DNA from: Takakia lepidozioides
Lineage: Eukaryota > Plantae > Bryophyta
Length of the DNA stretch: 64,000 nt
NCBI GenBank assembly: GCA_030704615.1
Contig: CM060733.1
Coordinates: forward strand, 15,190,001 to 15,254,000
Reading direction: 5' to 3'
Under the pieces are notes generated by a model. It made no database searches, was not told the origin of the DNA, and worked only from the letters and a program-made list of their open reading frames with translations. The translations under genes and the position numbers were made by a program. Each line of letters begins with the position of its first letter. Within the stretch, counting starts at the first letter, position 1. Of the stretch, positions 37,822 through 62,279 are shown piece after piece.

Positions 37822-38148
37822 TGTCAAGTTATTTTACCACTAGTGTGAAACTAGCTAGGAAATAGCTAGCTTTTACATATTGACATTTGGGATTGGCCCA
37901 AGTGTCAATCCAGGGGTCAAGGCAGATTTAGGCCCTGGAGTGGTTATCTTCACGGCAAGCGCGGGAGGCTCATCTTTCTCGAGTTGAGCCTCACCGCGCC
38001 TAGCTATGGCGCCGTAGTGTGGATTCCCCATGGCGTGGGGTGCACTTGGCTTGACTTGTATTTGAGTGATGAGGTTATATATGCATGAGTTTATGCTTCA
38101 GCTTTGTGAGCTCGCATGAGCTTGTGCTTGTATTCTTCTTCTTTATCA
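37822..38148 (+). repeat. Terminal repeat A1 (327 bp)
   Basis: Near-identical to 48381-48705 and to the reverse complement of 50956-51273; starts TGTCAAG and ends TTATCA. Confidence 0.95.
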
Positions 38149-38160
38149 CTCGAGAAAGAT
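38148..38160 (+). promoter_or_regulatory. Putative self-priming primer-binding site
   Basis: ACTCGAGAAAGAT directly at the end of A1 is the exact reverse complement of ATCTTTCTCGAGT (37972-37984) inside A1; no TGG-type tRNA PBS is present. Confidence 0.7.
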
Positions 38161-38863
38161 CAGCTCGTATCTATGAGTGCTAGATACGAGTTAGTTGTAG
38201 CACTTGTGGTTTTTGCTTGAGAATGAGGGAAACCAAGTTGTTATGCAAGGAGCACCGTGGAGCTCTTGGTTGTTAGAAGCGGAGGCGATGTGGGTTACGA
38301 GGTGGTAGACCTTGGCATTCGATCTTCAGCTTCAGAGATGAAAGCACCATGCTGCAGGTAATTCCAGAGCACCTTGATGGTTTCAGATTGTGTACATACA
38401 TGAGCAAGCACGATTGGGAAGAGGACCAGTCAAGAGCAGGTTATAGTGGCTTTGGTGGCAAAGCTAAGAACTGGACCTGGGAATGCGAGCTTTCATTGTG
38501 TGAAGGATTGCAAGACCAAGCGAAAGGGCTGATTTGGCTTGGGGCAAATCAATGCACTTTGTGGAGTATGGTGAGATTGGGTTTCAATCTCGAGCTTCAG
38601 CATTGAGAGGGCTCTTGTCATGGCAAGAGCAGGGCTGGAACAGGAGCTAAGAGGTGCGGCAAGGCCATGGAATGTGCACCTAGGGTTTCAGAGCTTGGAA
38701 GAAGAGCTCTTGCACCACAAGAGAAGTGTCTTGTGGCTGGAAATGTAAGCCTTAGGGTTTCAGGAGCTTGGCAAAGGCTATGGAGTGCTTAGTCTTATCT
38801 TAGAGAGCATCAAGGAGCCAAGGAGCCAAGATAGGGGGCTGATATCTCTTGTGTGAAGAGGTT

Positions 38864-39245
38864 GCATGTGTGGAGCATGTATTCAGCTCATTGAAGCTTC
38901 CATCTTCAAGCTTGGAGGGCAAGCAAGGAAGAGGGAAGGGCTGACTTCCCTTATGTGAGGGCAATGTATGTGTGGAGCATGCTATCAGCCTGGTGAAGGC
39001 TTGCACTTTTAGGTGTGGGAGTGCAAGAAAGGAAGGAAGGGGCTGGTTTCCCTGTAGGGCATGTAGAGCATGCTTTCAGCCTGCTGAAACTTGTATTATC
39101 AGGTTTGTGGGTGCAAGAAATGAAGCAAAGGAGCTGATTCTCTTATGGTGAGAGTGGGGCATGTGTGGAGCATGCCTTCAGCCCATTGAGGCTCTTGTTT
39201 TCAAGCCTTAGAGAGCTAGAACGGAAGGTCTAGGGTTGGTTTCCA
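38864..39245 (+). repeat. Four diverged ~100-bp tandem repeats in the element leader
   Basis: Recurring CATGTGTGGAGCATG-(3 nt)-TCAGC-like units, each followed by a GGAAG/GGGCTG-rich stretch, starting at about 38865, 38967, 39060 and 39160. Confidence 0.7.
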
Positions 39246-39684
39246 CTTGGAGTGAAAGAACAGCACTTGTAGGGCCTATGTGAGTTGGGGTTTCAACTTC
39301 AAGCTTGAAGGGAGCGCAACTCTGGAAGCAACAGGTGTAGAGGGCTGGAATAGGCTCTAAGATAGATGCTATGGCCAATGAGAGTGCTTGAATGAGTGCT
39401 CACAAGGGCTGGGAACCAGCAGGGCTTGGTTGTTTGCCATTGAGTTTAGTGGCGTGTTTGGAGAGGCTAAGTGAGAAAGAAGGCTTGGTTTGTGGCAACC
39501 ACCTCATGGCTTAGGGCTACTATGGTGGTGTGTGGGAGCCGAAAGAGCAAGGATACCTTGCTGATTTCCTCACAGCCACCATAGCTCGGTGGAAAGAAGC
39601 CTAGAGTCCAAGAGACACAAACCCTAGCTTGGCGTGGCTAAACCCCTTGGAGAAATGGCTAAACTTCCAGAGCGGCCATGTGTG

Positions 39685-39890
39685 GGGCTGTGACAGGCTG
39701 TGACAGGCTGTGATGGGCTGTGACAGGCGGTGCCCTGTGCCCTGTGGGGCTGGGACGGGCTGTGTCAGGCTGTGACAGGCTGTGCCCAGTGGCCTTTGGG
39801 GCTGTGACGGGCTGTGCGGGGCTGTGACAGGCTGTGCCCATGGCCTTTGGGGCTGTGATGGGCTGTGAGGGGCTGTGACAGGCTGTGACC
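39685..39890 (+). repeat. GGCTGTGACA-type 10-mer minisatellite with a higher-order unit
   Basis: Many GGCTGTGACA/GGCTGTGATG/GGCTGTGACG units; the block GGCTGTGCCCA..TGGCCTTTGG occurs twice. Confidence 0.85.
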
Positions 39891-40626
39891 AGTGAGCTGT
39901 GTGGGCCTGTGCTGGTCTGTGGTGGCCCGTGTTGACCTGTGGACGGCCTGTGCTGACTCGTGGAGGCATTGGTGGACTGCCTAAGGACTGGCATGTGGTC
40001 TGGAAGGCCGAATTTTGAAGCTCGTGGAGGGCGGTTTGAGGAGTATCTTCATGATATTCCCATGGTCATGCAAGTGAGGGTAGAGAGGAGAGGCAGAGTG
40101 TTGGGATGAGAGCATGCTGGGGTTAGGCATTGCTTTAGCTTCTCTTCCTCGTAGTTTCCACCCTCTCATTAGGCCAAGACCTTTCCGTAGGTGGAGGCAA
40201 GAGTCAGTCCGGGTTTGGGCTGGGGTGTCCTTGTAGGAGCAACACCGTGGAGTTGTTTTTGGTGTGGGGGAGTTGTCGATCTGATTTCTTGTGTTTGGAT
40301 CCCCTCCATACCTGCATGCTTGACTGTGCGCCATGCTAGTTTTGTGTGGGCGCTTGTTTTTATAGGTGATTGGTCCGGATTTGATCACCGGCCAGTCCTA
40401 GAGCATGCTGTCGATGGTGAGGCTGGGGTGATGACCAGCCAGACCATCATTGTTTCTCCTGTGGTGAGGTTGGAGGTGATGACCAGCCAACCATAGGAGT
40501 GCTTGCGGTGGATACAGGTACAAGTGTAGGCTATGTTAGGAACTTAGTATTCCAAACCATAAGCCGCAACAGGTTCTCTACCCGGTTACCTTGTGGAGAG
40601 GGGGTTAGGGACATGTTCATGACCGG

Positions 40627-43600
40627 TTGAGTGTCAACACGGAGGTGCCACTAGTTGCTGGGGACAGTGCCGGTTCGAGCACTAGCGATACTAGTGGGTA
40701 CACGAGACGAGGTGTGCGGTTTAGGCCACCTTCACCTCCTGTGTCTTCCACGGAAGGTTCTGATTCGGATTGTGAATCAGGAGGGCTCATACCGGCGGTG
40801 CAAGTCGTTTCTTTGCCATTGTTGTGGGACACAATGGAGGAGATGTATGGAGCTACCAAGGGGCCACGAAGGTACTCTGGGGCGGTGGGCACCATCGAGT
40901 TGGATGATTTTATCCAAGAGTTTGATAGTTGGTGTGATTTGCAGCAAATGCGCAATCCACAACTATTTACGCCTTTCATGGCATGGAAGGGGCTGTTTCA
41001 GCACCTTGAGGGGCCGCCTATGGATGATTACCATGAGTTCAGGCGGGGGCATGAGGTCGAGATCGAGGAGTGGAGGATGTACTGGTCACCCGACTATGTC
41101 TCCATCACTAGGGGCACTAGAGCCACGAGGGCAGTGGCTACACCTGCCGCTGCACCGGCAGCTTCAGCAAGCAGCAGTGGGACTGGTGGTACAGTAGCTA
41201 CGACGCCCACCCAAGCCACCACCGCACCAGCACTAGCACCCGTGCCTGCCTTCAACCCTGTTGTGGAGTTCTTCAAAGAGTTGAGAGGGAACTACCAAGG
41301 GGTGAGGACAGAGAAGTTGCGGAGCTTGCAAGAGTTCCAACGGAAGCCGACCGAGAGCTTGAGGGAGGCTTTCACTCGCATGAGGCGCTTGATAAATGTA
41401 ACCCAAGGGGTTACGGAAGCTCAGGCAGTCCAATTCTGGTATGGGATATTGGACAAGGAGCTGAGGAGAAGGGTGCGGGATGCGACTCTCCTACAAGCGG
41501 CCCAACCCACCTTAGCAAATGTGTTTTTGCTGGCAGAGCGGATAGAGCTCAACATGGTGGAGGAACGAGTGGTCATGGTGGGATTTGCTAAGGAGACACC
41601 ACGGGGTAGTGGTGCTCCTAGCCAACCACTACCTCAACGTACTCAAGGCAACAAGGGGGCTCAGGTGAAGCTCAGGGAAGGGCAGAGAGGACCTCAGATG
41701 CAGGGGTCTCTCCCTTCATTTGCTGGCCAACAACGGGCGGATGTGGTGTGTTGGACATGTGGAGGACCCCATGCCAAGAAGGATTGCCCAGAGGGAGGCA
41801 AAGGGCCGGCACATGCACAGCCTGCACAGTTGCAGTGTGGGCATTGTGGCAAGCACGGGCATGGAGAGGCCCAGTGTTATGGTTTGCATCCTGAGTTGCG
41901 CCCAGGCCAGTTCCAAGGGAACAATGGTGGCCGGGGGCGAGGTGGAGCAGCCCAAAGAGGACGAGGTGGCCAGCCACGAGGTGCACGCCAAGGGCAAGCT
42001 CAACGTGGCCAAGGACGCGGAGGTCAGGGTGTTGACCAAGGCATGGCCAACCGGCTTCAGCAGCTAGAGCAGAGGCTCGCTGCCATGGCTACAGCTCAGG
42101 CGGTACCGGCTCTAAGGCCGGATGGTCCCCCTCCTGCTCCTGAGGGAGGAGATATGGGAGGCATGGGATTCATGTGTGGAGCAGCACTACCACTAGTGCA
42201 GGTAGAGTCTGCTGCAGCCGTGACTCGAGGAGCAGCACGAGTTCCTGAGCCACGAGGTGCAGAGGTGCAGTTGGATCCACAGCGTGGGGAGGCAAGCCGT
42301 CAGGCTAGGCTTCCTCAGTCATTCACATTGGCGGAGACAGTGTCGACGCCATCCATGGCACCTAGTTCTCGCCCGACTGTTACCGAGGCGGAGGTTACTA
42401 TGCCATTGGGGAGAGCTACACGGGTAGCACCACTACCTAGTGTTGCCAAGGCTACGGCAGCTAGTGTGCTGTTAGGAGCGGCCACATCTGTGTGCCAGGC
42501 TCCATTGTTCTCGGCTACCATGATTGCGACGCCGGGGATAAGACCAGCTGAGGTGTTCAGGCTGGCAGCTACACTCTGTGAGAGTGGGGAGGTTACTTCA
42601 TCTTCTGCGGAGATAGTGGGAGGTGTAGTGCCGGAGGGATCCTCGGATTTGAGGGTCAAGACTGCCACGGCGGCGCCATGGCAAGCTGCAGCTGCCAGGT
42701 TGATGGAGCTGCCAGCTAGGCCAGCCATTGAGCGCGCCATGGTGACACCTGGAGTTGTCATGTTAGACAACCAGGATGGCATTTTCTGTTTGAGTGGACC
42801 GGCAGGCAAGAGGTACCGGCCACTGCGAGTCTTGTTGGACTCGGGAGCTCAGCCACTGATGCTGGGCAGAGCTGCTATTGCAGGCTTGGGCCTCACGGAG
42901 GCGGATATGGAGCCTTGTCCTTTCCAGATACAGACGTCTTTGGGAGGATCGGAGCAGGCTCGGGGCATGACACGGCGTGAGTTGGCTATCAGACTACGGC
43001 CGGATCACCCTACAGATGGCTCAGTGATGCGAGCCAAGGCCATTGTGACAGATGTAGTCGCATACGATGTCCTGGTTGGTGGGGCAGTGTTGTACCCCAT
43101 GGGCTTCACCCTGGATTTTTGGGAGGAATCAGCTTCATATAGGTCTGCATGGCAGTCAGGGGAGGGCCGGCGTGTGCAGCTCCCTGTGACGTTCATAGGA
43201 GGAGTTGCGGTTGCCCAGCGAGGCAAGATGCCGACACTAGCAGCATTCACAACGGCAGTGAGTTGGCCTAGAGAGTTGCTTGAGGGCAATGCTCATTCAG
43301 AGGATGTACCACCTCCGGGAGAGCAGGATGACATGTATGGTATGACGGAGTTGCCTACCATGGTTGCTCAGACTCCATTGTGGGGCACGAGCAAGGATTT
43401 GCAGCGGGTTGCTGATCGACGGGTGCAACAAGCCTGGGTGGAGGCTTTTGTACCGTCAGGAGAGGAGGAGAGTGTGGGGATTGCACCAGGACCACCTCAA
43501 TTGTCTCCATTGGACACCACACCTATTGTGTGGCAGTATCCGGATGAAGGCATTTGTCTTCTGGACTTGTTTGGCGGGATCAGCACCGGATTGGCTGCTG

Positions 43601-44798
43601 TGTTACAAGCAGGTGTACGAGTTCGGCGTTACCTGTATGTGGAGAGGGATGAGACTGCACGACGCGTTTCACTTCGCCATGTTGCTCAGTTGGTGCAGCG
43701 GTAGCCTGAGTTGTTGTCGGTGTCTGCAATTCGTGGATATCAACAGGCCTTGCCAGCAGACATTTCGTTGCTGGGGGCGCAGGATTTGGAGCGGGTTGGC
43801 TCCATTGATCTGGTAGTGGCAGGTTGGCCTGCCAAGGGCATTCATCAGCCGGGCATGGCAATGGATTGCGAGACTCGAGGTCGGGTCTGTTTTGGGAGAT
43901 GGTGCGGGTTTTGCGCCACTTGCAGCTTCATCAAGCTGTATCTCCAGCATACATCTTGGAGAATGTGCCACTGATGGGCGATTCTCGGGCCAGGGTGATG
44001 GCCAGTGTGCATCAAGTCCGGTCGTGGCTTGGGTCAGCAGTGTTGCTAGATGCAGCTACAGTGGGGTCACGAGCTCATCGTCCACGGCTATGGTGGACTA
44101 ACTTGATGCCACCCGCACTGCTCAAGCGTGCATTTGATGGGGTGCAGCGGCCAGCGCATCTCACAGTGGATAACATTCTGGACACAGGGAGGCAGTCTCA
44201 ACGTGTGAGACACGATGACCGTTCGCCTTTGGCAGTGGTCAACAAGGTGGGTCAACCACGAGCAGCATTACCTACACTGCTCAGCTTCCCAGGATCGCAT
44301 GCTTTCCGGGATAGTGGACCTGGCCTCCTGTGGGATGCTCAGTTGCAGCAGTTAGTGGAGCCTAATGTTGACGAGCGTGAGCGGGCAATGGGTTTTACCA
44401 CTGGTACCACGGCGGTGTCGTCTCTTTCTGAGGCATCACGTCGTCAAGTGTTGGGGCAAGCAATGGATCTCAATTGCTTGACCTGGATTATCAGCTTGGC
44501 TCTAGCTGAGCAACGCAGAGTGCGGAATACACTTCCCTCAATGGTCTCTCTGCCTACCGAGACGGTACAGGCAGTGAGTGGGGGCGAGCATATGAGGACC
44601 ACGGGGTGCATGCATCCATGGCACACGTGGGAGGTGCTCGAGGTTCAGAGGGAGTTGGCAGCCAAGGCGGCTGTGATGGATGAGGTTGGGGATTCTTCTC
44701 GGGTTGAGGAGGTCCTCAAGGATGAGATGATGGGGCAGGATGAGGCCTTGTCATTGACTGAGCAGGCAGGGAGTACTGCTCAAGAGGTTGCAGCATAG
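40627..44798 (+). CDS. Gag-protease-DNA cytosine methyltransferase polyprotein (one premature TAG at 43702, one 1-bp frameshift at ~43830)
   Basis: Zn knuckles CWTCGGPHAKKDC and CGHCGKHGHGEAQC, RGG tract, protease VLLDSGAQ (~42830). C5-MTase motifs I LDLFGGI (43561), II YVERD, IV DLVVAGWP[C]QG, VI ILENV (~43959), VIII HRPRLWW, IX ERERAMGF and X LGQAM (~44451). Confidence 0.9.
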
Positions 44799-47700
44799 CA
44801 ACCACGGGACGCGTCCTCTACCTCTAAGCCCACTGGACTTAAGGTTGTAGTTACGGAGGACAATTGGGAGCCTGACATTGGACCCATTGTCACCGGAGGA
44901 GAGAGACGACGTATACGGCGATTCCTGAGGGCTTACAAGAATTGCTTTGCCTTCAGTTTGAAGGACTTGGGAGCACTGAAGGGTCAAGAGATCCGTATTG
45001 AGTTGGCCACTGACACGCCAATCTTTCGGAGACCCTATAGATACAGTGACATGGAGAGGTCTTTGATTCAGATGAGGACTCAAGATCTCTGGGAGGCAGG
45101 TTTGGTGGAGCTCTCTGGTGGAGAGTATGCTTCAGCCACAGTGATGCCAGCCAAGAAGGATGTCTATGGCAATTGGACGGAGAGACGTATGTGCGGTGAT
45201 TACCGGCCTGTAAATCGTCAGACCAAGTCCGATAAGTATGCCATGCCAACACCAGAGGAGATCTTTGATGCTATCGGGCATGCTAAGGCCTTTAGCACTT
45301 TGGATTTACGATCCGGATATCACCAGTTGCCAATCAAGGAGGCGGACAAGCAAAGACGGCATTCTGGGGGATCAATGAGCACGGCAAGGATTGCCTATAT
45401 CAGTGGCGGTTCTTACCATTTGGGCTTAAGAATGCTCCTGCAGAGTTTCAGAGAGTCATGGATAGGATTCTAGCAGGGGTGGACTTTGCTCGGTGCTACA
45501 TAGATGACATCATCATCTTTAGTGTTACGATGGAGGAGCATGAGAGATACCTTCAGGTGGTATTGGAGCGCTTGAGAGCGCACAGATTGAAGTTGCATCC
45601 GGGGAAGTGCAAGTTTTTCCACAACCAGATTGAGTATCTGGGTCACATGATATATCCTGGAGGATTGGGGGTACAGCAGACTAAGGTAGAGGCCATTGCA
45701 CAAATTCCACGCCCCATGGATGTGAGCCGAGTTCGAGCTTTCATGGGGTTGGCAAACTATTATAGACGGTTTGTCAAGGGATTTAGTACCATTGCAAAGG
45801 CTCTAACCAAGCTGACCAAGGTGGACCAGGAGTGGCAGTGGGAAGATGAGCAGGAACGAGCTTTTCAAGAGCTCAAGGCGAGGTTGACCTCGGCGCCTAT
45901 CTTGAGACGACCTATCAGGGGGCGTCCCTTTCAGCTGCATACGGATTGGAGCATGCTAGGGCTTGGAGCAGTGCTCACACAGGTGGATGATGAGGGAAGA
46001 GAGTTCGTAGTAGCTTATGCTAGCCGCTCGAACAACGCTGCAGAGGCTAAGTACAGCTCATATGAGGGAGAGTGCTTAGCTGCAGTGTGGGCCGTGGCAC
46101 ACTTCAGGTGCTATCTATACGGCAATCTTTTCACCCTTGTCACGGATCACCAGCCACTCAAGTGGTTGATGGAGTCAGACAAGCTTACGGGGAAGCTTGC
46201 ACGGTGGGCACTTATACTCCAGGAGTATGACTTTCAGGTTGTGCATCGACCGGGTTTGGTCAATCGAGATGCGGATGGATTGAGTCGCAATCCATGCATG
46301 AGCCAGCAGGATGACACTGGAGCTCGGTGGCATGGTGAGACGGACGAGGAGATGGTGCCGGGATGGCACGCATCTGCATTTTTGTGTATCTTGGCATCGG
46401 GAGGTCAGATTGGACCTACAACAGGGATGACTGTAGAGGAGTGTCTGAGGACCCTGAGGCTAGTGATGAGCTAGGTGGTGCCGAGATATACATGAGGATT
46501 CGGCTGTGTTGGATTACCTCCGCACGGGAGACACGGCAGCCATTGTGACTGCCAGGGAGAGGGATCGGATCCTGCAACGAGCCAAGAGGTTCAAGTGGGA
46601 GGGGATACACCTACTTCGAGTGTGGGAGGATGGTCGGGTGAGGATTGTGCCTCACCCCACACAGCGTGCACGGTTAGTGCGGCATGCCCTTGAGGAGGAT
46701 TGGGGCATTTTGGAGTGCGACGCACTCACAGTTTACTGCAGGGGCAGTATTGGTGGCGTGGTATGCATACAGAGGTGCAACAGTTCGTGGCTAGGTGCAT
46801 GGTGTGTGACAGGGTGCGTGCTTCATTCAACGCCCCTACACCACAGTTGCATCCTTTACCAATCATGGGATTGGGCTACAGGTGGAGTCTTGACTTCGCA
46901 GGACCGTTGCCACTGACTATGCGCCACCACAGATATGTGTTGGTGATGGTGGAGCACTTCTCCAAGTGGATTGAGTTGGTTCCATTGCCTGACAAGGCTA
47001 GTGAGGGGGCTGCGTATGCATTCTTGGATCGTGTGCTTAGCCGATTTGGTGCTCCAGCTGAGGTACTCACGGACCAAGGGAGAGAGTTTTTGGGGGAGTT
47101 TCAGGCTTTGTGTGATAAAGCCTTGATAGACCACCGCACCCACTTCTCGGGATCATCCTGAGGCCGATGGCTTAGCAGAGAGAGTTGTTCAGACGGTGAA
47201 GAGGGGTTTGCGCAAGTATGGCTTGCAGAAGGGACACCTAGGAGATTGGGATCTTCAGGTTCCTTGGTTAGCCATGGGCTACAGGTTCAGCAAACAAGCA
47301 TCACTTGCCTCCTTCTCACCATATTTCCTTCTCTTTGGCCGAGAGCCGGATTTGCCTGCAGCCATTCGTAGGGACACTGCTCAAGTCCTTAACCTTGACG
47401 ATCCGGACGTGTGGGTACGTGCATGTGATCAGCGTGCAGAGTTGTTCAAGAAAGTCATGCCCATGGCTTTTGAGAACCTTGCCATTGCACAGCACCGTGA
47501 TACGTTGAGGTATGCCACTATACGTGGTGGAGGATATCGTCCTGGGGTTCGGAGGTTTAGCCCTGGTGACTATGTTTATTTGCAGCAGACTGCTCCTACG
47601 ACTCTGGATGTTACTGCAGGGCGTGTTATTCTGAGGGTTCGAGAGGTGTTGCCCTCAGGGGTCCTGATCTTAGAGGGTCGGGATGGCATGACTTGAAAGA

Positions 47701-47932
47701 CCATGTGCGTAATTGTGCGCCATGTCACCTTCCCAATGTCGATGGCAGAGTTGACCCAAACTTGGCAGTGGTACCTGCAGGTTTGAGGTGCATGCTCTGT
47801 GGGTCTGCCAAAGGGGCAGCCACCATGCTGGTGTGTGATCGGTGCTCAAGGGGTTGGCATATGGGATGCTTGACACCACCTCTTGAGAAGGTTCCTGACG
47901 GAGATTGGTTGTGTCCACACTGCTTGGGATAG
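44799..47932 (+). CDS. Pol: RT-RNaseH-integrase-PHD finger (several 1-bp indels)
   Basis: [67 protein letters not shown]-terminal C4HC3 PHD CMLC...CDRC..GWHMGC...WLCPHC (47789-47923). Confidence 0.92.
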
Positions 47933-48192
47933 TGACAATGGACATGACTGGAGGCAGCTAACAAGACATGGGAGGCCAAGCTCATAGGAGTCAATACATG
48001 AGATCCCAAGCTCAAGTTCACAGGTTGCAAGACGGCGACTAACGATGGGGCAACTCTTGCACCCGGCCTCTTGATCTATCGAGTTTGAGTGTAGTAGGGA
48101 TAGTGGTGGAGGACTTAGTGAGGCTATGGTCACTATCACATCTTGTGGCTACCTGGACTTAGAGGGACCTAAGCACCAGCTAGGGGGGCGAT

Positions 48193-48897
48193 TGTGTGGA
48201 CTAGTGACTGCCATAGTGGGGCGGAGTGGCAGCCTAGTGACTGACTAGTTGTAGCCTAGTGGTTGGACTAGTGGCTGGACTAGTGGTAGACTAGTGGTAT
48301 ACTAGTGTGTGGTGTGCACATGTGTTGTGTGGTTTTGGACAGCGATGTAGTTGTGTAGCGATATGTATGCGCACGACAGCTGTCAAGTTATTTTACCACT
48401 AGTGTGAAACTAGCTAGGAAATAGCTAGCTTTTACATATTGACATTTGGGATTGGCCCAAGTGTCAATCCAGGGGTCAAGGCAGATTTAGGCCCTGGAGT
48501 GGTTATCTTCACGGCAAGCGGGGAGGCTCATCTTTCTCGAGTTGAGCCTCACCGCGCCTAGCTATGGCGCCGTAGTGTGGATTCCCATGGCGTGGGGTGC
48601 ACTTGGCTTGACTTGTATTTGAGTGATGAGGTTATATATGCATGAGTTTATGCTTCAGCTTTGTGAGCTCGCATGAGCTTGTGCTTGTATTCTTCTTCTT
48701 TATCATTGTGTGGACTAGTGACTGCCATAGTGGGCAGCGGAGTGGCAGCCTAGTGACTGACTAGTTGTAGCCTAGTGGTTGGACTAGTGGCTGGACTAGT
48801 GGTAGACTAGTGGTATACTAGTGTGTGGTGTGCACATGTGTTGTGTGGTTTTGGACAGCGATGTAGTTGTGTAGCGATATGTATGCGCGACACGACA
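48193..48897 (+). repeat. Right-end repeat block B1 (48193-48378) - GC - A2 (48381-48705) - T - B2 (48707-48897)
   Basis: B1 and B2 are near-identical and rich in tandem CTAGTGG units; A2 matches A1; B1 starts just after the PPT AGGGGGG. Confidence 0.95.
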
Positions 48898-49925
48898 TAG
48901 ACATGCCTGGAAAGCATTGGTGGAAGGTTTCTTTCACAAACGACATCAAGAATTGGGCGTACTAAGTGGAAGAAGGGCTCAACACTGAAGAATGAGTTGC
49001 TGCAATTGAACCAAGAGTTGCCCGCAATGTTATGGACAACTTGCAGCACTGTACGATGCCCATGTTTATCTTCCTACCCATATCTGGAGTGCAGATGAAA
49101 AAGGATGTGAGGGAGGACGGGATTCCAACAACAAAGTGTTGACCAAGAAAGGTCCCGAAAATTGTGTACTCAACAATTCCTACCATTTAAAGACATTTTG
49201 CTTAGCAGAATCCTAGTAATATTCATTAAAGGGAGTGAGAGAACATTCATAACTGACTAAAGACTGGTGCAGCTATGGCCATCGTGCAACCAAAAGCTTT
49301 CATGAATTGTTTCTGAAGTGGCTTCTGGGTTCTGTTAAGGAAATTGTGAATCAATGGGGCCAAGCTGCAGCACCCGCTACCCACAATGGCCTTGTCACAT
49401 GGATGCCTGTCCACATCAGAAACGGCACCTACACAGCTCCAGAGAGGTGGGAGAGGAAATAGCAAAGATTAGTGGTAGGTGAGCAAAGCTTTTACTACCA
49501 TGGTACATTGCTACTCGGCCTTCTCCATGCTGTCCATGCCTGATGAGTAGAGGCCAGGCCGGCTTTTATGGATTCCAGAGGGAACTAGGTCAATTTCCGG
49601 ACCGTAGTAATCAGTTCTGGCACAGGCACCGATTTCTGCATGGAAGACTAGTCAGGAAATGCCATTTATTTTGATACGGTAATGTCACAATCATTCTATC
49701 CCTTCCATGGAACTCACTGAAGTCTTGCATTATGAGGATCAGAACTAATTGGCAGCTTACTTGCACGAGGCCTTGACCCTTACGCAATCCCCAGAGCAGC
49801 AGTAGCAGTAGCTTTGGGCTGCTTTTTTACTTGTGTTTTTCATTTTGTCCCATAAGCTCTTTGAGCTTTCCGCAGATGTAATAAGTACCATTTTGTTTCA
49901 TTTCATTCATTTTCATTTCATTTTG
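48898..49925 (+). mobile_element. LINE 3' end with a (TTTCA)n tail
   Basis: Ends GAGCTTTCCGCAGATGTAATAAGTACCATTT...(TTTCA)n; related 3' ends occur on the minus strand at ~4364-4415 and ~21986-22026. Confidence 0.5.
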
Positions 49926-52358
49926 GTTCATGGCATATCTTTCATCGTTTGTGCATTTCTAATGCATGATTAGTTCTCTTGTATGGCATTACTAGTCGAC
50001 TCACTACAAACACCAAAACTCCAAAGCATGAATCGCTATGAATGATTGTTCAAGTAATTTCGAGCACTTCATGGAAAGTAGTAAAGCAGTGGTTGCGCCA
50101 ATTTCCACAGTCGCAATTGCCACTGGGCATGTAGCACTGCAAGTTATGTGGTCTACTACCACATGGCGCCCCGGGCCCGTGGCCATGTGGCAGCAGTGCT
50201 GCTCGTCGTGGCGCCGCCACGTCGACGTCCACATCGTCGTCCACGTCCGCGTCCATGTGTCACCGCGCTTCGGTGAGTCGGTGCACTCATCCGGAGGGAA
50301 AAGTCAAAGTCAGCCCAAAAGGTCAGACACACGGGCTTGGCAACAGCCCAGCCTCCCGTTTGATTACATGCGGTGGAGCCCCCCTTGAAGTAATCCTCAG
50401 GAACCACGTGGTTCTTCAGCATTAATCGCATTAATCGCTGAGCAGTTGTTCGCGCGTCTTCGTCCTTTACCACTCCAATCATTGGATGTCCAACCCAACT
50501 ACCACGTCTGTTGTAACTAGTCGTTTGTAACTTCCAGTCGATCCCGGTTTTTTGACTTTTACGACTCAAAATGAGTCGTTACTCCAGTGGTAACTGACAC
50601 AAATGCTTCTAGTGTAATGTCTTAATGTACCATGTACAGTTCTAAGTTAGTCCATCCTGCAAATGTGGGCTCTTGGCTCTTGTTATGATTTGGTATCTTT
50701 CCTAATGTTTACAAGGTCTTGGGGAGAGTCAGCTTGGTCTTCGCAAGCTGCGTTTCAATCTCTGCCATGTCGTGCGCATACATATCGCTACACAACTACA
50801 TCGCTGTCCAAAACCACACAACAATGTGCACACCACACACTAGTATACCACTAGTCCACCACTAGTCCAACCACTAGTCCAACCACTAGGCTACAACTAG
50901 TCAGTCACTAGGCTGCCACTATGCTGCCCACTATGGCAGTCACTAGTCCACACAATGATAAAGAAGAAGAATACAAGCACGAGCACAAAAATCTGAAGCA
51001 TAAACTCATGCATATATAACCTCATCACTCAAATACAAGTCAAGCCAAGTGCACCCCACGCCATGGGGAATCCACACTATGGCGCCATTAGCTAGGCGCG
51101 GTGAGGCTCAACTCGAGAAAAGATGAGCCTCTTGCGCTTGCCGTGAAGATAATTACTCCAGGGCCTAAATCGCCTTGACCCTGGATTGACACTTGGGCCA
51201 ATCCCAAAATGTCAATATGTAAAAGCTAGTATTTCCTAGCTAGTTTCACACTAGTGGTTAAAATAACTTAACAGCTATCGTACGCATACATATCGCTACA
51301 ACAACTACATCGCTGTCCAAAACCACACAACACATGTGCACCAACACACTAGTATACCACTAGTCCACCACTAGTCCAACCACTAGGCTACAACTAGTCA
51401 GTCACTAGGCTGCCACTATGCTGCCCACTATGGCAGTCACTAGTCCACACAATCGCCCCCCTAGCTGGTGCTTAGGTCCCTCTAATCCAGGTAGCCACAA
51501 GATGTGATAGTGACCATAGCCTCACTAAGTCCTCCACCACTATCCCTACTACACTCAAACTCGATAGATCAAGAGGCGGGTGCAAGAGTTGCCCCATCGT
51601 TAGTCGCCGTCTTGCAACCTGTGAACTTGAGCTTGGGATCTCATGTATTGACTCCTATGAGCTTGGCCTCCATGTCTTGTTAGCTGCCTCAGTCATATCC
51701 ACTGCCACTATCCCAAGCAGTGTGGACACAACCAATCTCTGTCAAGAACCTCTCAAGAGGTGGTGTCAAGCATCCCATATGCCAACCCCTTGAAATCGAT
51801 CACACACCAGCATGGTGGCTGCCCCTTTGCAGACCCACAGAGCATGCACCTCAAACCTGCAGGTACCACGCCAAGTTTAGGTCAACTCTGCCATCGACAT
51901 TGGGAAGGTGACATGGCGCACAATTACGCACATGATCCTTCTAAGTCATGCCATCCCGACCCTCCAAGATCAGGACCCCTGAGGGCAACACCTCTCGAAC
52001 CCTCAGAATAACACGCCCTGCAGTAACATCCAGAGTCGTAGGAGTAGTCTGCTGCAAAATAAACATTAGTCACCAGGGCTAAAACCTACCGAACCCAGGA
52101 CGACGTCCTCCACCACGCATAGTGGCACAACCTCAACGTATCATGGTGCTGTGCAATGGCAAAGTTCTCAAAAGCCATGGGCATGACTTTCTTGAACAAC
52201 TATGCACGCTGATCACATGCACGTACCCACACGTCTGGATCGTCAAGGTTAAGGACTGAGCAGTGTCCCTACGAATGGCTACAGGCAAATCCGGCTCTCG
52301 GCCAAAAAAGGAAATATGGTGAGAATGAGGCAAGTGATGCTTGTTTGCTGAACCTGTA

Positions 52359-55300
52359 TGTCGCGGCCCTTTGCCTTGAGGGCAGGGGGTTTGGGACACA
52401 TGAGGGGCTGCCCCTGTGGTGGGGGCAGCGGCAGCGATAGGTACGGGGGGCTGAAGCACCCTTGAGTGCCCAAGGCACTCAAGGAGGCGGAGGCGCTCAC
52501 TAGGTGGAGCCCCGCACACCGGGTTGCGGTGGGGGTGGCTCCACAAGGGGTGGTGGTAGCTTAGCGGGACTTAGTGGGGGGTGGCATAGGACTCACCATG
52601 AGGGCGGAGACCTCGTGGTGGGAGTCGTGGGGAGTCTTGGGACTCATCACGGTCCATAGGGGCCGTGATGAGTGGGCCAAGACTCACCGCGACTCATCAC
52701 CGGGAGTCGAGGGTTTTCGTGGTGGTTCGCCATAAAATGGCATGGCTGGTTATGAAACCCCCGCGGACAGCTACAGTATATAAGGGAGTAGTAACCCCGA
52801 GAACGGTGCAAGCCCGTTGGTGACCAAAAACTAGTGAGTAAGCGAGCGAGCCGGAAAGCGACCAAAGAGTGGGGAGCTGTTCCGGACTGCCATCTACCAA
52901 AGGGAATTCTCCTAGTCCCAAAGAGGTGGAGGGTTTAGAAGGAAGCGAAGGGGGACCGTTATGTCCCGGTGAGCAGCCGAAGCTCCAAGTTGGCCCGGGC
53001 GGCCAGGTTGGGAGTCAGGCGCGCGCATCAAAGCGAGTAACTATGACTTGAAGGGGAGCTTACCGAAGTGAGGTGCGCGACATTTGGTATCAGAGCTTAG
53101 AGTTCAGTACGCGATCGTCCTTGGGATTGGCCTCATCATGGGGTCGGGCAAGCCAAAGCGAAAGCGGAACGGCCCAAAAGATGATGATCCTGGTGAGCCC
53201 GATGGGGGCGACGTGTCACCGAGGCGGCCGTTTGAGGAAGCGATGAATGTTTCCGAAAACGAGGCCGCTCAAGAGCGGAGGAATCCGAGGAGTCGGAGCC
53301 CGAGGAATCCTTGAGAGCTCCGACAAACCAAGAGATGCCTCCCATGCCGGCAGCCTTTTGGGAAGGGTTGTTGGCGCAGTTTGGCGGGACGTTGAAAGAC
53401 GTGTTGAAGGCGGCTAATGCCACTTCCACTAAGGCAAAGTTTAAGGTGAAGCCTAAGGAACCCGACACCTTCGAGGGCGTTCGAAATCGGAAGGCACTCA
53501 ACACCTGGCTCTTGGAGCTAGAGCAGTACTTCCGGGCGGCCAAGTTGAGTGACGAGGATCGGGTGGAAGTGGCTCCCACCTATTTGAGGGGCTATGCTCA
53601 ACAATGGTGGCAGAAACGCCTTCACGACCGAGGCCCAAGCCCGGAAACCTTGAACTGGAGTGGGTTCAAGGAATTGATGAAGAGACAGTTTGTGCCCCTC
53701 AACGCGTCCTGGCTTGCCCGGGACAAGATGAGGAATTTGAAGCAAACAGATGACATTCGGGGGTATGTCCAGGCTTTCAATGTGCTGTTGCTCGAAGTCG
53801 CGGACATGGCAGAACCAGAAATGGTCTTCAACTTTGTGGCGGGACTGGCCCCATGGGCCAGGCGGAAGTTGGAGGAGAAGCCACCCAAGACTTTGAACGA
53901 GGCAATTGAGAGGGCTGAATGTTTCTCGGATGTCCCTAGGGGTGAAAGACAAGGCCGTACGGAGCTGAACCACAAGAAGATTCGGCGGGAAGGTGACTCA
54001 TTCTGACCGGAAAAGAAGTGGGATAGGCCACGCGGCGATAATGGCACGTGGAAATCGAAGGGAGGGCCTTCGTACGTCAAGGCGGCACCCGGTGCTCCAA
54101 AAGGAAAAGCGGGTGGAGCGGCTTATGGCGGACAGAAGGCGACCTTTGATGGAGCGTGTTTTCAATTGCGGGGAGCCCGGGCACATGGCCAAGAAGTGCA
54201 CGAAGCCCGGCAATTGAACATGACTCGGGCGACCACGGAGCTGTCGGAAGATACCATCAGTCGCTTGGTGGAAGCGGTGGTCGCCAGGACTTGCAAGGTA
54301 GGCAAATTTTCTTGTGAGTTGTATCAGGAAACTGGCGCCTTACGAAAAGGGAGTCAGTTATTGTTCGTGGATGGGATAATATCCGGAACTAATGTGTCGT
54401 TGTTGGTGGACACAGGAGCGTCGCACTCCTTCATGACGCCGGCGGCGGCGCGAAAGTTGGGACTCCCGACAAGTGACGTGGGGGCCTCTATTGAGGTGCG
54501 CTCTGCCAAAGGAGAACCTCAGTTGGCGACAAGGTTGGCGTTTGATGTTCCTCTTCAACTGGGGAGTTGGGAGGGACGTGAGAACTTCACTATCTGCGAG
54601 ATCGATGGAGTGGATCTCATTTTGGGAATGACCTTTTTGAGCAAATCCGGAGCGGTCATAGATGGCCGCAAGAGAGTAGTCACGCTGCCATGTGGGAATG
54701 GTGGCGAGGTTTTACGAGTGTCGGAAACGCCCAAATCCGTGGGAGGGCGAATAAACCTTCTATCAGCAAAGGAGTGGGCCGTGGAGGAGACACACGAGTC
54801 CCAGTTTTTGCTTTACATTAGAGAAGTGAAAGGAGAAGGCGATGGGGAGCCGAGCCCAGATTGGATCAAGGGGATTTTGGAGAAATACCAGGATGTGATG
54901 CCGGAGGATTTACCAAGCGGCTTGCCACCGCGAAGAGGAGTTGACCACAAGATTGAGGTGATACCGGGATCGGAACCGCCTGCCAAGGCGCCCTACCGGT
55001 TGAGCCACAAAGAGTTGGTCGAGCTGAAGACTCAGCTCAAGGATCTAATGTCAAAGGGGTACATCCGGCCGAGTAAGTCACCTTACGGAGCCCCGGTGCT
55101 ATTTGCAGACAAGAAGGATGGGACGCTGCGGATGTGTGTCGATTACAGGGCTCTGAATAAGGTGACTATCAAAAACCGGTACCCTTTGCCAAGGATCGAC
55201 GACCTCTTCGATCGGTTGGCAGGAGCGAAGTATTTCAGCCGGATCGACTTGCGCTCCGGCTATCACCAAATTCGGGTGGCGGAAGGAGATGAGGAGAAGA

Positions 55301-58300
55301 CCGCGTGCAGGACAAGGTATGGTTCATATGAGTTCTTGGTGATGCCTTTTGGGCTCACCAATGCACCAGCGACATTTAGCACGCTGATGAACAGCCTTTT
55401 CCAGAGTGGTTGGATGACTTTGTGATCGTGTACATCGACGACATCTTGGTGTACTCGAAAACAAAGGAGGAGCACCTGGAGCACCTCAAAAGGGTGTTCC
55501 AAAAATTGCGAGAAGGGAAGCTGTATGCCAAAGCTTCAAAGTGCGAATTCGGGGTCACAAAAGTGGAGTTTTTGGGGCATGTGATTACACAGGATGGGAT
55601 CAAAATGGATGACAGAAAGGTGAGGGCGATCTTGGACTGGGAGCCTCCGACTTCGGTCCCGGGAGTGCGATCCTTCCTAGGACTCGCCTCCTATTACCGG
55701 AATATGTGAGAAATTTCGCCAAGATCGCGGGGCCGCTGTCGGACCTTCTGTGTAAATCCAAAGTCTGGGTATGGAACACATTTTGTGGCCAAGCTTTTGC
55801 TGAATTGAAGCAGCGGATGACGGAAGCTCCAGTCTTGAAAATCCCGGAGTTCGATCGCCCGTTTGAGATTCATACAGATGCATCGGACTTCGCGATTGGG
55901 GGTGTACTTATGCAAGATGGACGTCCAGTGGCTTACGAAAGTAAGAAACTGAATGAAGTGGAGCGACGGTGGCCGACGCACGAAAAAGAGATGAAGGCGG
56001 TGGTGCATTGCCTTGAGCTCTGGCGCCACTATGTTGGTTCCAACCCAGTGAAGGTGTTCACGGACAATGTCACGGTGAAGTATTTTGCCACGCAGCCCAA
56101 GTTGTCCCCAAAACAACTTAGGTGGCAAGATACTTTGGCAGTGTTCGACGTGGATATCCAGTACAAACCGGGACGGGACAATGTGGTGGCCGATGCTTTA
56201 AGTAGAAAGCAACAGCTCTTGTTGGTGTACAAGGGCGAGACGGCACTCCAAAGGAAGATCCGGAAGGCTTGCCGGAAGGATGAGCTGGCGAAGTCCGTGA
56301 TGCAGGACTTGAGGATGGGGGTTAAATCGCAGTTCCACTTGCAAAATGGACTGCTCCGGTATAAGCAAAAGCGTCTCTACGTGCCGAAGGGAGGGATCAG
56401 GGATAGTCTCTTGAGAGAATGCCATGATAGCCCGCTTGCGGGCCACGGTGGAGCCAAGCGCACTGCGGCACTCTTGAAGAAAGAGTATTTCTGGCCCAAA
56501 CTGAGGGAGGAGGCAGAGGAGTATGTCAAAACATGCACCACATGCCAACAAAACCGGAGCGAGTACAAAAAGCAAGCGGGGCTATTACAACCCTTGCCGA
56601 TTCCAGAGGGGACTTGGGAAAGCGTCTCGATGGATTTCATGACTGCTATGCCGCTGTCAAAAGGATTCGATGCAATCATGGTGGTGGTAGATAGGTTCAG
56701 TAAAATGGGCCATTTCATCCCCACCAAGGAGACGGCAACGGCGCAGGAGACAGGGCGACTTTACTTCACCACGTCTTAAAGCATCATGGAGTCCCGAAGG
56801 ATATTGTCTCGGATCGCGATCCAAAGTTTACGAGTAAATTCTGGAGAGCACTTTGGAAGAAGATGGGGACGAGGCTGAAGATGAGCACCGCCTTCCGACC
56901 TACGACGACGGCCAAACGGAAAGAGTGAATTCCGTAGTGAAGCAATTCTTGCGGAATTACGTGTCGGCAGACCAATCAGACTGGATGGAACACTTAGACG
57001 CGGCAGAGTTCTGTTATAATAACACAGAACACTCCGCAACGGGAGTTTCCCCTTTCGTGTTGGTCTATGGAAAAGCACCTCTGGTGCCGACAAGTTGGGC
57101 CGCCCAGGACGTTGAGGAACCGGGCAGTAGCGGCGGTACTGGAAGAACGCGAGCGTTTGTTGAAGCTCGCAAAGTACAATATTGCCAAAGCTAGGAAACG
57201 GTATGAAAGGCAGGCGAATCGGAAGCGGAGGGAAGTGAAGTTTGAGGCAGGCACAGAGGTCTGGTTGAACATCAAGAATTTCCGACTACCTCCGGAAGTG
57301 AGTCCGAAGTTCGTGCCTCCGTATGCGGGACCCTTTCGCATTCGAAAGGTTATGAATGAGGATGTGTATGAATTGGAGCTGCCGGCAAACAGCAAGGTGC
57401 ACCCAGTATTCCATGTCTCCTTTTTGAAGCCTTACTTCAAAGATGAAGCGCGTCCGAATCGGCATCAAGTGTTGCGTCTGCCACCTATGCTGTTGGATCA
57501 TGAAAATGAACCTGAGTACGAGGTGGAGGCAATACTTAAGTCGAGGAGGTTCAGGAACCAAGAAACGGAGTATCTCGTCAAATGGAAGGGCTATCATCAT
57601 GTGGAGGCATCTTGGGTGCGTGCCTCAGAAATGGGAAACGCATCCGAGGCGGTTGCAGCTTTCGAAGGGCGACCTCAAAAGCGGAAGAAGCGTTGATGGG
57701 GACATCAACCTTGGAGCGTGGGGGAGGAAATGCATGCTTAGCCCGGTTTAGCTAGCTCAGGAATCCGATTGCAAAAACTTGTATTGTACAAAAATTTGTT
57801 ATAAAGGAAAAGGGTTCCAAATATTGTGCGTCCTATTGTGTTTGGAATGGTGATGCATGGTGTGGTTGGCTAGTGTGTAGAATGCATGCTAGCTTACAAA
57901 AGTGGGAGAGGTAAATTGGGTAATCGTGTGTTTGCGCAGTGCCGAAATCGGGTGACTCCCATCCAAGGGGCAAGGAAACTTGCGCCTTCTTTGGGAGTTC
58001 ACGTGCTAGTGCGCACCTGGCGCGTGCGCGTACTATAACTGCGCTACCGAGGGGTTGCCTTGTAGTGCGGGCTAACGCGGAAGCTACGTGCTTCCGTTCA
58101 CGTACTATAATCGTGTAACCTCGGGACGAAGTCGTAGTGCGGCTTCGACGTGTTCCCGTACCTCAGGCCAGCATTCCAAGGCGGACCCAATTGTAGTGAT
58201 TGGGGCGCACGGTTGGTTCAAGGTTATCTTCCTAGTCAAAAGAGGGTTCCAGGTGAACCCTTGCTCAAGGTGATGCCAAAAGCGGCATCATGAGCGATCG

Positions 58301-59331: not shown

Positions 59332-62279
59332 CTGTAGCCCATGGCTAACCAAGGAACCTGAAGATCCCAATCTCCTAGGTGTCCCTTCTGCAAGCCATAC
59401 TTGCGCAAACCCCTCTTCACCGTCTGAACAACTCTCTCTACTAAGCCATCGGCCTCAGGATGATCCCGAGAAGTGGTGCGGTGGTCTATCAAGGCTTTAT
59501 CACACAAAGCCTGAAACTCCCCCAAGAACTCTCTTCCTTGATCCGTGAGTACCTCAGCTGGAGCACCAAATCGGCTAAGCACACGATCCAAGAATGCATA
59601 CGCAGCCCCCTCACTAGCCTTGTCAGGCAATGGAACCAACTCAATCCACTTGGAGAAGTGCTCCACCATCACCAACACATATCTGTGGTGGCGCATAGTC
59701 AGTGGCAACGGTCCTGCGAAGTCAAGACTCCACCTGTAGCCCAATCCCATGATTGGTAAAAGATGCAACTGTGGTGTAGGGGTGTTGAATGAAGCACGCA
59801 CCGTGTCACACACCATGCACCTAGCCACGAACTGTTGCACCTCTGTATGCATACCACGCCACCAATACTGCCCTTGCAGTAAACTGTGAGTGTGTCGCAC
59901 TCCAAAATGCCCCAACTCATCATGGGCATGCCGCACTAACCGTGCACGCTGTGTGGGATGAGGCACAATCCTCACCCGACCATCCTCCCACACTCGAAGT
60001 AGGTGTATTCCCTCTCACTTGAACCTCTTGGCTCGTTGCAGGATCCGATCCCTTTCCCTGGCAGTCACAGTGGCTGCCGTGTCTCCCGTGCGGAGGTAGT
60101 CCAACACAGCCGAATCCTCATGTATATCTCTGGCACCACCTGGCTCATCACTAGCCTCAGGGTCCTCAGACACTCCGTCTACAGTCACCTCTGTTGTAGG
60201 TCCAACCTGACCTCCCGATGCCAAGATACACAAAAATGCAGATGCGTGCCATCCCGGCACCATCTCCTTGTCCGTCTCACCATGCCACCGAGCTCCAGTG
60301 TCATCCTGCTGGCTCATGCATGGATTGCGACTCAATCCATCCGTATCCCGATTGACCAAACCCGGTCGATGCATAACCTGAAAGTCATACTCCTGGAGTA
60401 TGAGTGCCCACCGTGCAAGCTTCCCCGTAAGCTTGTCTGACTCCATCAACCACTTGAGTGGCTGGTGATCCGTGACAAGGGTGAAAAGATTGCCGTATAG
60501 ATAGCACCTGAAGTGTGTCACGGCCCACACTGCAGCTAAGCACTCTCCCTCATATGAGCTGTACTTAGCCTCTGCAGCGTTGTTCGAGCGGCTAGCATAA
60601 GACACTACGAACTCTCTTCCCTCATCATCCACCTGTGTGAGCACCGCTCCAAGCCCCAGCATGCTCCAATCCGTATGCAGCTGAAAGGGACGCCCCCTGA
60701 TAGGTCGTCTCAGGATAGGCGCCGAGGTCAACCTCGCCTTGAGCTCTTGAAAAGCTCGTTCCTGCTCATCACTGCCACTCCTGGTCCATCTTGGTCAGTT
60801 TGATTAGAGCCTTTGCAATGGTACTAAATCCCTTGACAAACCGTCTATAATAGTTTGCCAACCCCATGAAAGCTCGAACTCGGCTCACATCCGTGGGGCG
60901 TGGAATTTGTGCAATGGCCTCTACCTTAGTTTGCTGTACCCCCAATCCTCCAGGATATATCATGTGACCCAGATACTCAATCTGGTTGAGGAAAAACTTG
61001 CACTTCCTCGGATGCAACTTCAATCCGTGCGCTCTCAAGCGCTCCAATACCACCTGAAGGTGTCTCTCATGCTTCTCCATCGTAACACTAAAGATGATGA
61101 TGTCATCTATGTAGCACCGAGCAAAGTCCACCCCTGCTAGAATCCTATCCATGACTCTTTGAAACTCTGCAGGAGCATTCTTAAGCCCAAATGGTAAGAA
61201 CCGCCACTGATATAGGCAATCCTTGCCGTGCTCATTGATCCCCCAGAATGTTGTCTTCTGCTTGTCCGCCTCCTTGATTGGCAACTGGTGATATCCGGAT
61301 CGTAAATCCAAAGTGCTAAAGACCTTAGCATGCTCGATGGCATCAAAGATCTCCTCTGGTGTTGGCATGGCATACTTATCGGACTTGATCTGACGATTTA
61401 CAGGCCGGTAATCACCGCACATACGTCTCTCCGTCCAATTGCCATAGACATCCTTCTTGGCTGGCATCATTGTGGCTGAAGCATACTCTCCACCAGAGAG
61501 CTCCACCAAACATGCCTCCCAGAGATCTTGAGTCCTCATCTGAATCAAAGACCTCTCCATGTCACTGTATCTATAGGGTCTCCGAAAGATTGGCGTGTCA
61601 GTGGCTAACTCAATACGGATCTCTTGACCCTTCAGTGCTGTTAGTCCTTCAAACTGAAGGCAAAACAATTCCTGTAAGCCCTTAGGAACCGCCGTATACG
61701 TCGTCTCTCTCCTCCGGTGACAATGGGTCCAATGTCAGGCTCCCAATTGTCCTCCGTAACTGCAACCTTAAGTCCAGTGGGCTTAGAGGTAGAGGACGCG
61801 TCCAGTGGTTGCTATGTTGCAACCTCTTGAGCAATACTCCCTACCTGCTCAGTCAGTGACAAGGCCTCATCCTGCCCCATCATCTCATCCTCAAAAACTT
61901 CCTCCACCCGAGAAAAATCCCCAACCTCATCTTTCATCGCCACCTTGGCTGCCAACTCCCTTTGAACCTCGAGCACCTCCCACGTGTGCCATGGATGCAT
62001 GCACCCCGTGGTCCTCACATGCTCGCCCCCACTCACTGCCTATACCGTCTCGGTAGGCAGAGAGACCATCGAGGGAAGTGTACTCCGCACTCTGCGTTGC
62101 TCAGCCATAGCCAAGCTGATAATCCAGGTCAAGCAATTGAGATCCATTGCTTGCCCCAACACTTGACGATGTGATGCCTCAAAAAGAGACGACACCGCCG
62201 TGGTACCAGTGGTAAAACTATTGTTGGTATCATTTCTATGCTATCAAAAGCCTCGCTCTTTGCTCTTGCTATTCTGGTA

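Follow-up and report, generated by a model that had tools for sequence, protein, structure and literature searches.

A stretch of 64,000 nucleotides (nt) from the bryophyte Takakia lepidozioides (assembly GCA_030704615.1, contig CM060733.1, positions 15,190,001 to 15,254,000; hereafter the window, numbered from its first letter) contains a Gypsy retrotransposon at 37822-48897 (+ strand). Its reading frames correspond to Gag, protease, a C5 cytosine methyltransferase, reverse transcriptase (RT), RNase H, a DDE integrase and a PHD finger (Table 1). A second, truncated copy of the same family (copy 2) lies on the minus strand. The core order of Gag, protease, RT, RNase H and integrase, with an integrase of the DDE type, is that of Ty3/Gypsy elements; the chromodomain of chromoviruses is absent, and a PHD finger occupies the place after the integrase. 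The element does not fit the DIRS type either, since the place after RNase H is taken by a DDE integrase and the seven element frames scanned gave no match to a recombinase family. The best PDB matches of the PHD finger are those of CHD4, KDM5B, PHF12, KDM5A and ATXR5; the PHD fingers of CHD4, KDM5 and ATXR5 are readers of unmodified H3K4.

A DNMT3-like methyltransferase domain between protease and RT

The methyltransferase domain is located between the protease motif LLDSGA and RT, and its motifs run in the canonical order: I (43561-43578), II (43636-43650), IV (43819-43830, continued in the next frame), VI (43953-43967), VIII (44073-44087), IX (44373-44396) and X (44439-44465). These coordinates bear out the order and the position given in a first-pass annotation made from the letters of the window, and the circular permutation that defines the DRM enzymes is not seen. 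PF00145 matched the part of the domain 3' of a frameshift described below (E 2.6e-7, 30.8 bits against a cut-off of 22), and the N-terminal part by itself gave no Pfam match. An unbroken Marchantia domain is 81% (77/95) and 74% (169/229) identical to the two parts found in the window.

When a homologue of the domain was compared with the sequences in the PDB, all 29 of the 29 matches were DNMT3A, DNMT3B or DNMT3C. A family profile scored human DNMT3A at 84.9 bits, above the best DRM (tobacco-type, PDB ID: 4onj; 48.1), M.HhaI (34.9) and DNMT2 (24), and the predicted model of an unbroken homologue (mean predicted local distance difference test score 69) superposed on DNMT3A with Z 23.8 and a root-mean-square deviation of 2.8 over 259 residues, whereas the best bacterial enzyme gave Z 19.8. 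The domain is thus nearer to DNMT3 than to DRM, DNMT1/CMT, DNMT2 or M.HhaI. The first-pass assignment to a DNMT3-like, non-permuted enzyme agrees with the PDB matches, profile scores, fold model and motif order alike. By sequence and predicted fold, the domain is a DNMT3-like C5 cytosine methyltransferase, with catalysis predicted.

Table 1. Features of the Gypsy element and of copy 2 in the window
Feature	Position	Strand	Basis
Repeat A1, left end, starts TG	37822..38148	+	99.4% identity to A2, 0 mismatches, 2 gap columns
Predicted transcript 5' end, would pair with primer site (self-priming)	37972..37984	+	13-nt complement of 38148-38160; putative role
Primer-binding-site position, complementary to a stretch within A	38148..38160	+	Sequence complementarity
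Gag, two CCHC knuckles	40834..41900	+	PF03732 E 0.006, below cut-off; knuckles from translation; match to Marchantia P0003
Aspartic protease, LLDSGA at 42832-42849	42760..43170	+	Weak profile match, E 0.06; motif
DNMT3-like C5 cytosine methyltransferase domain, broken here by stop and frameshift	43540..44522	+	Motifs, PF00145, homologues, fold model
In-frame stop between methyltransferase and RT, read-through-like context	44796..44804	+	23/26 close-clade copies; read-through predicted
RT and RNase H, frameshift near 45352	44970..46300	+	PF00078, PF17917, PF17919
DDE integrase and zinc-binding domain, several frameshifts	46600..47690	+	PF00665 E 2.5e-14, PF17921
PHD finger, end of Pol	47783..47929	+	PF00628 E 5.8e-12
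Purine-rich tract immediately 5' of B1	48180..48191	+	Sequence
Repeat B1, ends CA; with the 2-nt spacer and TG of A2 forms palindromic CA-nn-TG	48192..48378	+	Repeat alignment
Repeat A2	48381..48705	+	Repeat alignment
Repeat B2, right end, ends CA; no target duplication here	48706..48897	+	Repeat alignment
Copy 2, integrase to methyltransferase end, cut within motif IX	59332..62218	-	96.6% identity to copy 1
Copy 2, 3' part with B-A-B repeats; remainder split off by chromovirus insertion	50767..52358	-	93.9% identity to copy 1

Breaks in the window copy

The first-pass annotation described the domain as complete. All of its motifs are indeed present, but an in-frame stop at 43702-43704 had been overlooked, and a frameshift at about 43827-43830 falls within motif IV, so that the domain is broken twice here. 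At the position of the stop, more than 99% of the contig depth in sequencing run X1 differs from the window, as does 100% in runs X5, X6 and X12. Contigs without the frameshift make up 443/443 of the depth in X5, 91/93 in X6 and at least 158k/393k in X1; the single T proposed earlier as missing at about 43830 does not agree with these contigs. As the contigs of three studies mostly carry neither break, both are particular to this copy or its assembly. Between the terminal repeats there are several gap columns and no mismatches, which suggests long-read errors. As assembled, the window copy is non-functional.

The methyltransferase is under purifying selection

A metagenome scan provided loci for comparison, of which the best 80 of 288 confirmed relatives were used; these loci derive from a small number of samples, with duplicates among them, and are not independent. 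The catalytic Cys is present in 79 of the 80. In motif VI, 80 loci have the Asn and 71 the Glu, and 78 retain the second Arg of motif VIII, against a median of 56% per site. Between the window and 13 close loci, the nonsynonymous divergence (dN) is 0.19-0.28, the synonymous divergence (dS) is near saturation, and their ratio (omega) is 0.07-0.11. Across 35 pairs at dS 0.5-2 the median omega of the domain is 0.19, compared with 0.36 for RT-RNase H (18 pairs), and within the host species 15 of the 21 variable places listed are third codon positions (p 4e-4; the listing covers 40 of 144 rows). By these comparisons of sequences the domain is under purifying selection, contrary to what would be seen had the catalytic Cys been lost and the domain drifted neutrally, the outcome that the first-pass annotation had named as fatal to its proposal.

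Host range, relatives and abundance

Homologues of the domain (n = 49) carried an organism name in 20 cases, and 20/20 are bryophytes (16 Marchantia polymorpha, 2 Calypogeia and 2 Sphagnum); no Klebsormidium-named proteins were among the homologues listed. Of the 80 metagenomic loci, 76 show the domain order of the window, three are too short, and in one the domain is flanked by RNase H and integrase. A wider profile search returned 570 clusters (50% identity) at E <=1e-30. In the best 150 of these the domain stands downstream of RT/RNase H or immediately upstream of the integrase in 90, downstream of the protease or upstream of RT in 11, and alone in 49; a Pfam scan upheld the architecture for 18 cluster proteins.

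Summed over contigs, the depth in run X1 is 59-82 in the flanks and rises to 0.36-1.28 million within the element; this figure is no copy number, but it indicates that the family is very abundant. Depth over the methyltransferase equals that over RT, and no contig joints that skip the domain were found. The earlier view of the domain as a part of the family and not a chance neighbour is upheld. Trees of the domain and of RT-RNase H from 25 elements agree in their main groups, with one taxon placed otherwise; both have weak deep nodes and a single outgroup, and we claim no order of events from them.

A large sister group (P0305-P0447 and L058) has the order RT, RNase H, methyltransferase, integrase and PHD finger, often with EC in motif IV. 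Two scanned members also carry a G-patch domain; a green-algal source for this group is a guess only.

A conserved stop upstream of RT

The first-pass annotation placed the methyltransferase of the polyprotein in the frame of Gag and protease, between protease and RT. The domain is in frame with RT, but an in-frame stop (44796-44798) common to the family separates the two. Of 26 close-clade copies, 23 carry a stop codon at the matching place, TAG in 17 and TAA in 6, each with CAAC(C/T) directly after it; of the remaining three, two are frameshifted further upstream and one has a different double stop. Marchantia gene models P0003-P0005 likewise terminate just 3' of the domain. The context of the stop in the window fits UAG-CARYYA, the signal for read-through in tobacco mosaic virus and SIRE1. 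It is likely, judging from this arrangement, that the methyltransferase is made at the level of Gag and Pol by read-through.

Split repeats, predicted self-priming and integration

The ends of the element do not consist of two identical full long terminal repeats (LTRs). The repeats are instead split in the order A1, coding region, purine tract, B1, 2 nt, A2, B2 (A-coding-B-A-B), a layout found in many loci. The sequence 3' of A1 is complementary to a stretch within A, mostly about 25-30 nt downstream of a TATA-like box. Such complementarity of at least 11 nt was found in 14/26 elements and in 20/650 controls, and the paired sequences differ among three groups of elements. Reverse transcription is predicted, by analogy with Tf1/Tcn1 elements, to be self-primed. 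No tRNA genes were found within the window.

In this arrangement B+nn+A would act as the LTR, so that the TG...CA ends of the element would lie inside it. Exact 4-bp target duplications flank these ends in 10/14 elements, or at 9/13 sites when one of each duplicate pair is dropped. The A2/B2 joint has the sequence that a head-to-tail fusion of the ends of a normal linear copy would give, in one locus (L060) with a 19-nt insert. Duplications at ends internal to the would-be LTR suggest integration from a circle, and opening of such a circle at the CA-nn-TG palindrome would yield A-coding-B-A-B. The integrase of foamy virus cleaves palindromes at LTR-LTR junctions (PMC1180852). Alternatively, extra strand transfers on a linear template could produce the same layout.

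Copies of the form A-coding-B were considered as proof of one-LTR circles and rejected as such: one insertion site is represented by A-B-A-B in L037:5337-15006 and by A-B in L047:536-9666. As the flanks of these two are identical, recombination or assembly collapse accounts for the A-coding-B copies.

Origin of the domain

Resemblance to DNMT3 invites the view that the domain was captured from a host gene. The family profile, however, gives one bacterial protein 84.4 bits and others 65-82, and since bacterial and phage enzymes score as high as DNMT3A, the likeness is no proof of host capture. A phage or bacterial DNMT3-like methyltransferase as the donor, in place of a host DNMT3 gene, is possible, although we lean against it. 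In its favor, a Vibrio phage enzyme likewise has DNMT3B/A as its best PDB matches, two of the top three Atlas clusters are phage clusters, and PHROG 116 matches. However, the Klebsormidium domain grouped with Dnmt3 in a 2018 tree, in a divergent clade (PMC5890265), prokaryote genomes yielded just 13 distant enzymes of 22-28% identity, identity to phage proteins is below 32% among the 20 matches listed, and viral contigs gave 92 pattern matches of which 0 were confirmed. Bacteroidota and phage C5 methyltransferases with DNMT3-like motifs (L081-L093, L094 and L095) have profile scores level with human DNMT3A.

A model for the role of the methyltransferase

In our judgement there is about an even chance that this bryophyte Gypsy enzyme is packaged in the particle and methylates, probably at CG, the DNA copy that the element has newly made, prior to its integration. 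The main product would be Gag-protease-DNMT, with RT-RNase H-integrase-PHD made through occasional read-through of the stop, so that many methyltransferase molecules would enter each particle, where the protease would release the domain. Self-primed reverse transcription would give a normal two-LTR DNA (LTR = B+nn+A), this would circularise, and the integrase would open the CA-nn-TG palindrome in one LTR to leave A-coding-B-A-B. The methylated copy would resemble host chromatin on arrival, and the PHD finger may direct it to nucleosomes. That a packaged enzyme methylates the new DNA copy was put forward in 2018, and the same work describes de novo CG methylation in yeast by SymbioDIRS-Dnmt3 domains (PMC5890265). 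A fuller history appears rather unlikely: in it, a single ancient green-plant lineage of PHD-bearing Gypsy elements would have carried an active DNMT3-like enzyme from algae to land plants, and in bryophytes would load it into particles at the level of Gag by way of a leaky stop, methylate a circular DNA intermediate and integrate the circle at an attachment site within the LTR.

A number of observations weigh against pre-integration self-methylation. In yeast the Klebsormidium nitens Gypsy domain showed no activity, but neither did human DNMT3B, and the authors term the result inconclusive (PMC5890265). The Pro preceding the catalytic Cys is Glu in 41/80 loci. The domain is unbroken in only 6/80 loci, and in close pairs omega is 0.47 (RT 0.42), values that decay following insertion would produce. 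The stop is missing from the distant clade (8/37 open through), the strict CARYYA context occurs in only 3/26 copies, and no target duplication flanks the window copy, which may have arisen by recombination or misassembly. Between the two window copies, differences show no bias to CG (CG 0.062, CHG 0.087, CHH 0.032), and their maximum at CHG points to silencing by the host once the copies had inserted. At codon junctions, CpG is depleted in the element (44/137 of expectation, 0.32) relative to the neighboring chromovirus (55/81, 0.68), but host exons are equally poor (10/26, 0.38). With host exons as depleted and a single control element, we rejected this depletion as proof of self-methylation; the flanks of the loci yielded no further elements that could serve as controls. 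The depletion is compatible with self-methylation and not diagnostic of it.

Other roles must be weighed against the packaged-enzyme model. An active enzyme could act on chromatin (integrated copies, a promoter or the neighborhood of the insertion) and so limit transposition or silence rival elements. The amount of enzyme predicted from Gag-level synthesis exceeds the need of one DNA copy, and the closest structures of the PHD finger mostly read unmodified H3K4, as the ADD domain of animal DNMT3 does. We nonetheless think this role unlikely: the PHD finger lies on the integrase side of the stop, apart from the methyltransferase, and self-silencing is ill-suited to a depth four orders of magnitude above the flanks. 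The option itself was raised in the 2018 paper (PMC5890265), but in Physcomitrium the host enzymes MET, CMT and DNMT3b explain 93-97% of each methylation context (PMC6453930).

The inactivity of the K. nitens domain in yeast (PMC5890265) and the EC form of motif IV, seen in 41/80 loci and in 75/150 cluster representatives (the best 150 of 570), would also fit a domain kept for a non-catalytic task, for instance to bind or shield the DNA copy or to aid its circularisation, or one that acts on the element's RNA. Conservation of the catalytic Cys, Glu, Asn and Arg and of motif I far above the average site, and retention of PC in the close clade, speak against this role, which we also think unlikely. 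A captured gene piece under no selection would explain why 74/80 loci, like the window copy, are broken; it is contradicted by omega of ~0.1-0.2 across lineages, by the third-position bias within the host species, and by retention of the domain in mosses, liverworts and 570 clusters with a tree broadly similar to that of RT-RNase H, and we regard it as highly improbable.

Relation to known elements

The closest known element is KnitGypsy-Dnmt3 of K. nitens, compared here by its published description (PMC5890265). Each combines Gypsy domains, integrase included, with a polyprotein-borne Dnmt3-related domain that is unpermuted and under purifying selection, and with DIRS-like split repeats in the order A-coding-B-A-B. 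Unlike KnitGypsy-Dnmt3, which has few copies and one open reading frame shared by the domain and RT, the present family occupies land-plant hosts, reaches very high abundance here and has the domain 5' of a conserved stop; the portions of the 2018 text consulted make no mention of a PHD finger, self-priming or target duplications, all of which were found or predicted here. Of the Symbiodinium elements in the same paper (PMC5890265), SymbioDIRS-Dnmt3 and SymbioLINE-Dnmt are also retrotransposons bearing a C5 methyltransferase, and the DIRS type shares the repeat layout, but they use a tyrosine recombinase or LINE endonuclease and no DDE integrase, and their hosts are unrelated. EpiLTRs/DAM-LTRs are Gypsy-like as well and combine DNA methyltransferases with a chromatin reader, but these are an adenine methyltransferase, a DNMT4-related domain and a chromodomain; the preprint sets them apart from 'streptophyte Gypsy-DNMT3' (bioRxiv 10.64898/2026.05.21.726589).

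The catalytic domain of human DNMT3A/B and moss PpDNMT3b (PMC6453930) is alike in fold and motif order (Z ~23, 25% identity), whereas the domain described here lacks PWWP and ADD, resides in a retrotransposon polyprotein and has predicted activity. Chlamydomonas Gypsy-7a_cRei also has a PHD finger in a Gypsy polyprotein, with no methyltransferase in the description consulted (bioRxiv 10.1101/2022.06.16.496473), and Tf1/Tcn1 share tRNA-free self-priming, again with none in the account consulted (PMC6317226); Tcn1 is a chromovirus.

The first-pass annotation had cautioned that algal elements bearing a DNMT might limit novelty, and justly so, as the kind is described from K. nitens (PMC5890265). 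No land-plant report was found in the literature searched, in which unseen figures or supplements of 'streptophyte' papers may cover bryophytes. None appears in the parts consulted of PMC12344493, PMC10952607, PMC11096116, PMC6453930, bioRxiv 10.1101/363937 and 10.1101/2021.11.30.470311, and Marchantia is not named in the main text and supplements examined of the 2018 paper (PMC5890265), although two later papers write 'streptophytes' when citing it. The features not found in the literature searched are the land-plant range, the conserved stop and the C-terminal PHD finger, together with the predicted self-priming site and the 4-bp duplications at TG...CA ends within the would-be LTR.

Why retrotransposons bear their own silencing enzyme has been a question since 2018, when the known hosts resisted manipulation. 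It can now be tested in Marchantia polymorpha, where the family is present (16/49 matches) and for which methylomes and methylation mutants are available. Were the fuller history outlined above correct, Marchantia would hold a self-methylating, circle-integrating retrotransposon that would also make up a large part of some moss genomes; if integration proceeds from a circle, this would be an unusual replication route for an element with an integrase. The gene models Mp4g09160 and Mp8g17980 carry PF00145 and could be mistaken for host methyltransferases. The split repeats and the repeat-less A-coding-B form likely evade ordinary LTR finders, and the family may be under-annotated.

Other features of the window

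Copies 1 and 2 are arranged tail to tail with 1.9 kb between them (48897-50767). Copy 2 had been said to retain motifs IX and X; motif X is there, but only the final residues of IX, with chromovirus gag sequence adjoining beyond 62218. More chromovirus gag and LTR pieces occupy 62219-63205 (- strand), joined straight to copy 2 inside motif IX, a junction that is likely a deletion or a nested event. A chromovirus at 52359-59331 (+ strand), with Gag, protease, RT, RNase H, integrase and chromodomain, sits in the integrase of copy 2 with a 5-bp duplication, and its LTRs differ at 5/735 positions.

The 2.7-kb leader of copy 1 (38149-40833) contains tandem arrays, with units of ~100 nt at 38836-39244 and of ~52 nt at 39666-39921, and its CpG is 0.33 of expectation. 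Outside the elements, 4682-7484 (+ strand) holds exons of a host gene of the chorein-N/UHRF1-binding-protein-1-like family that is closest to mosses; the exon at 4682-5926 is 63% identical to Physcomitrium, 62% to Ceratodon, 48-53% to liverworts and, over its full length, <50% to seed plants, from which the host is probably a moss, distant from Physcomitrium and Ceratodon.

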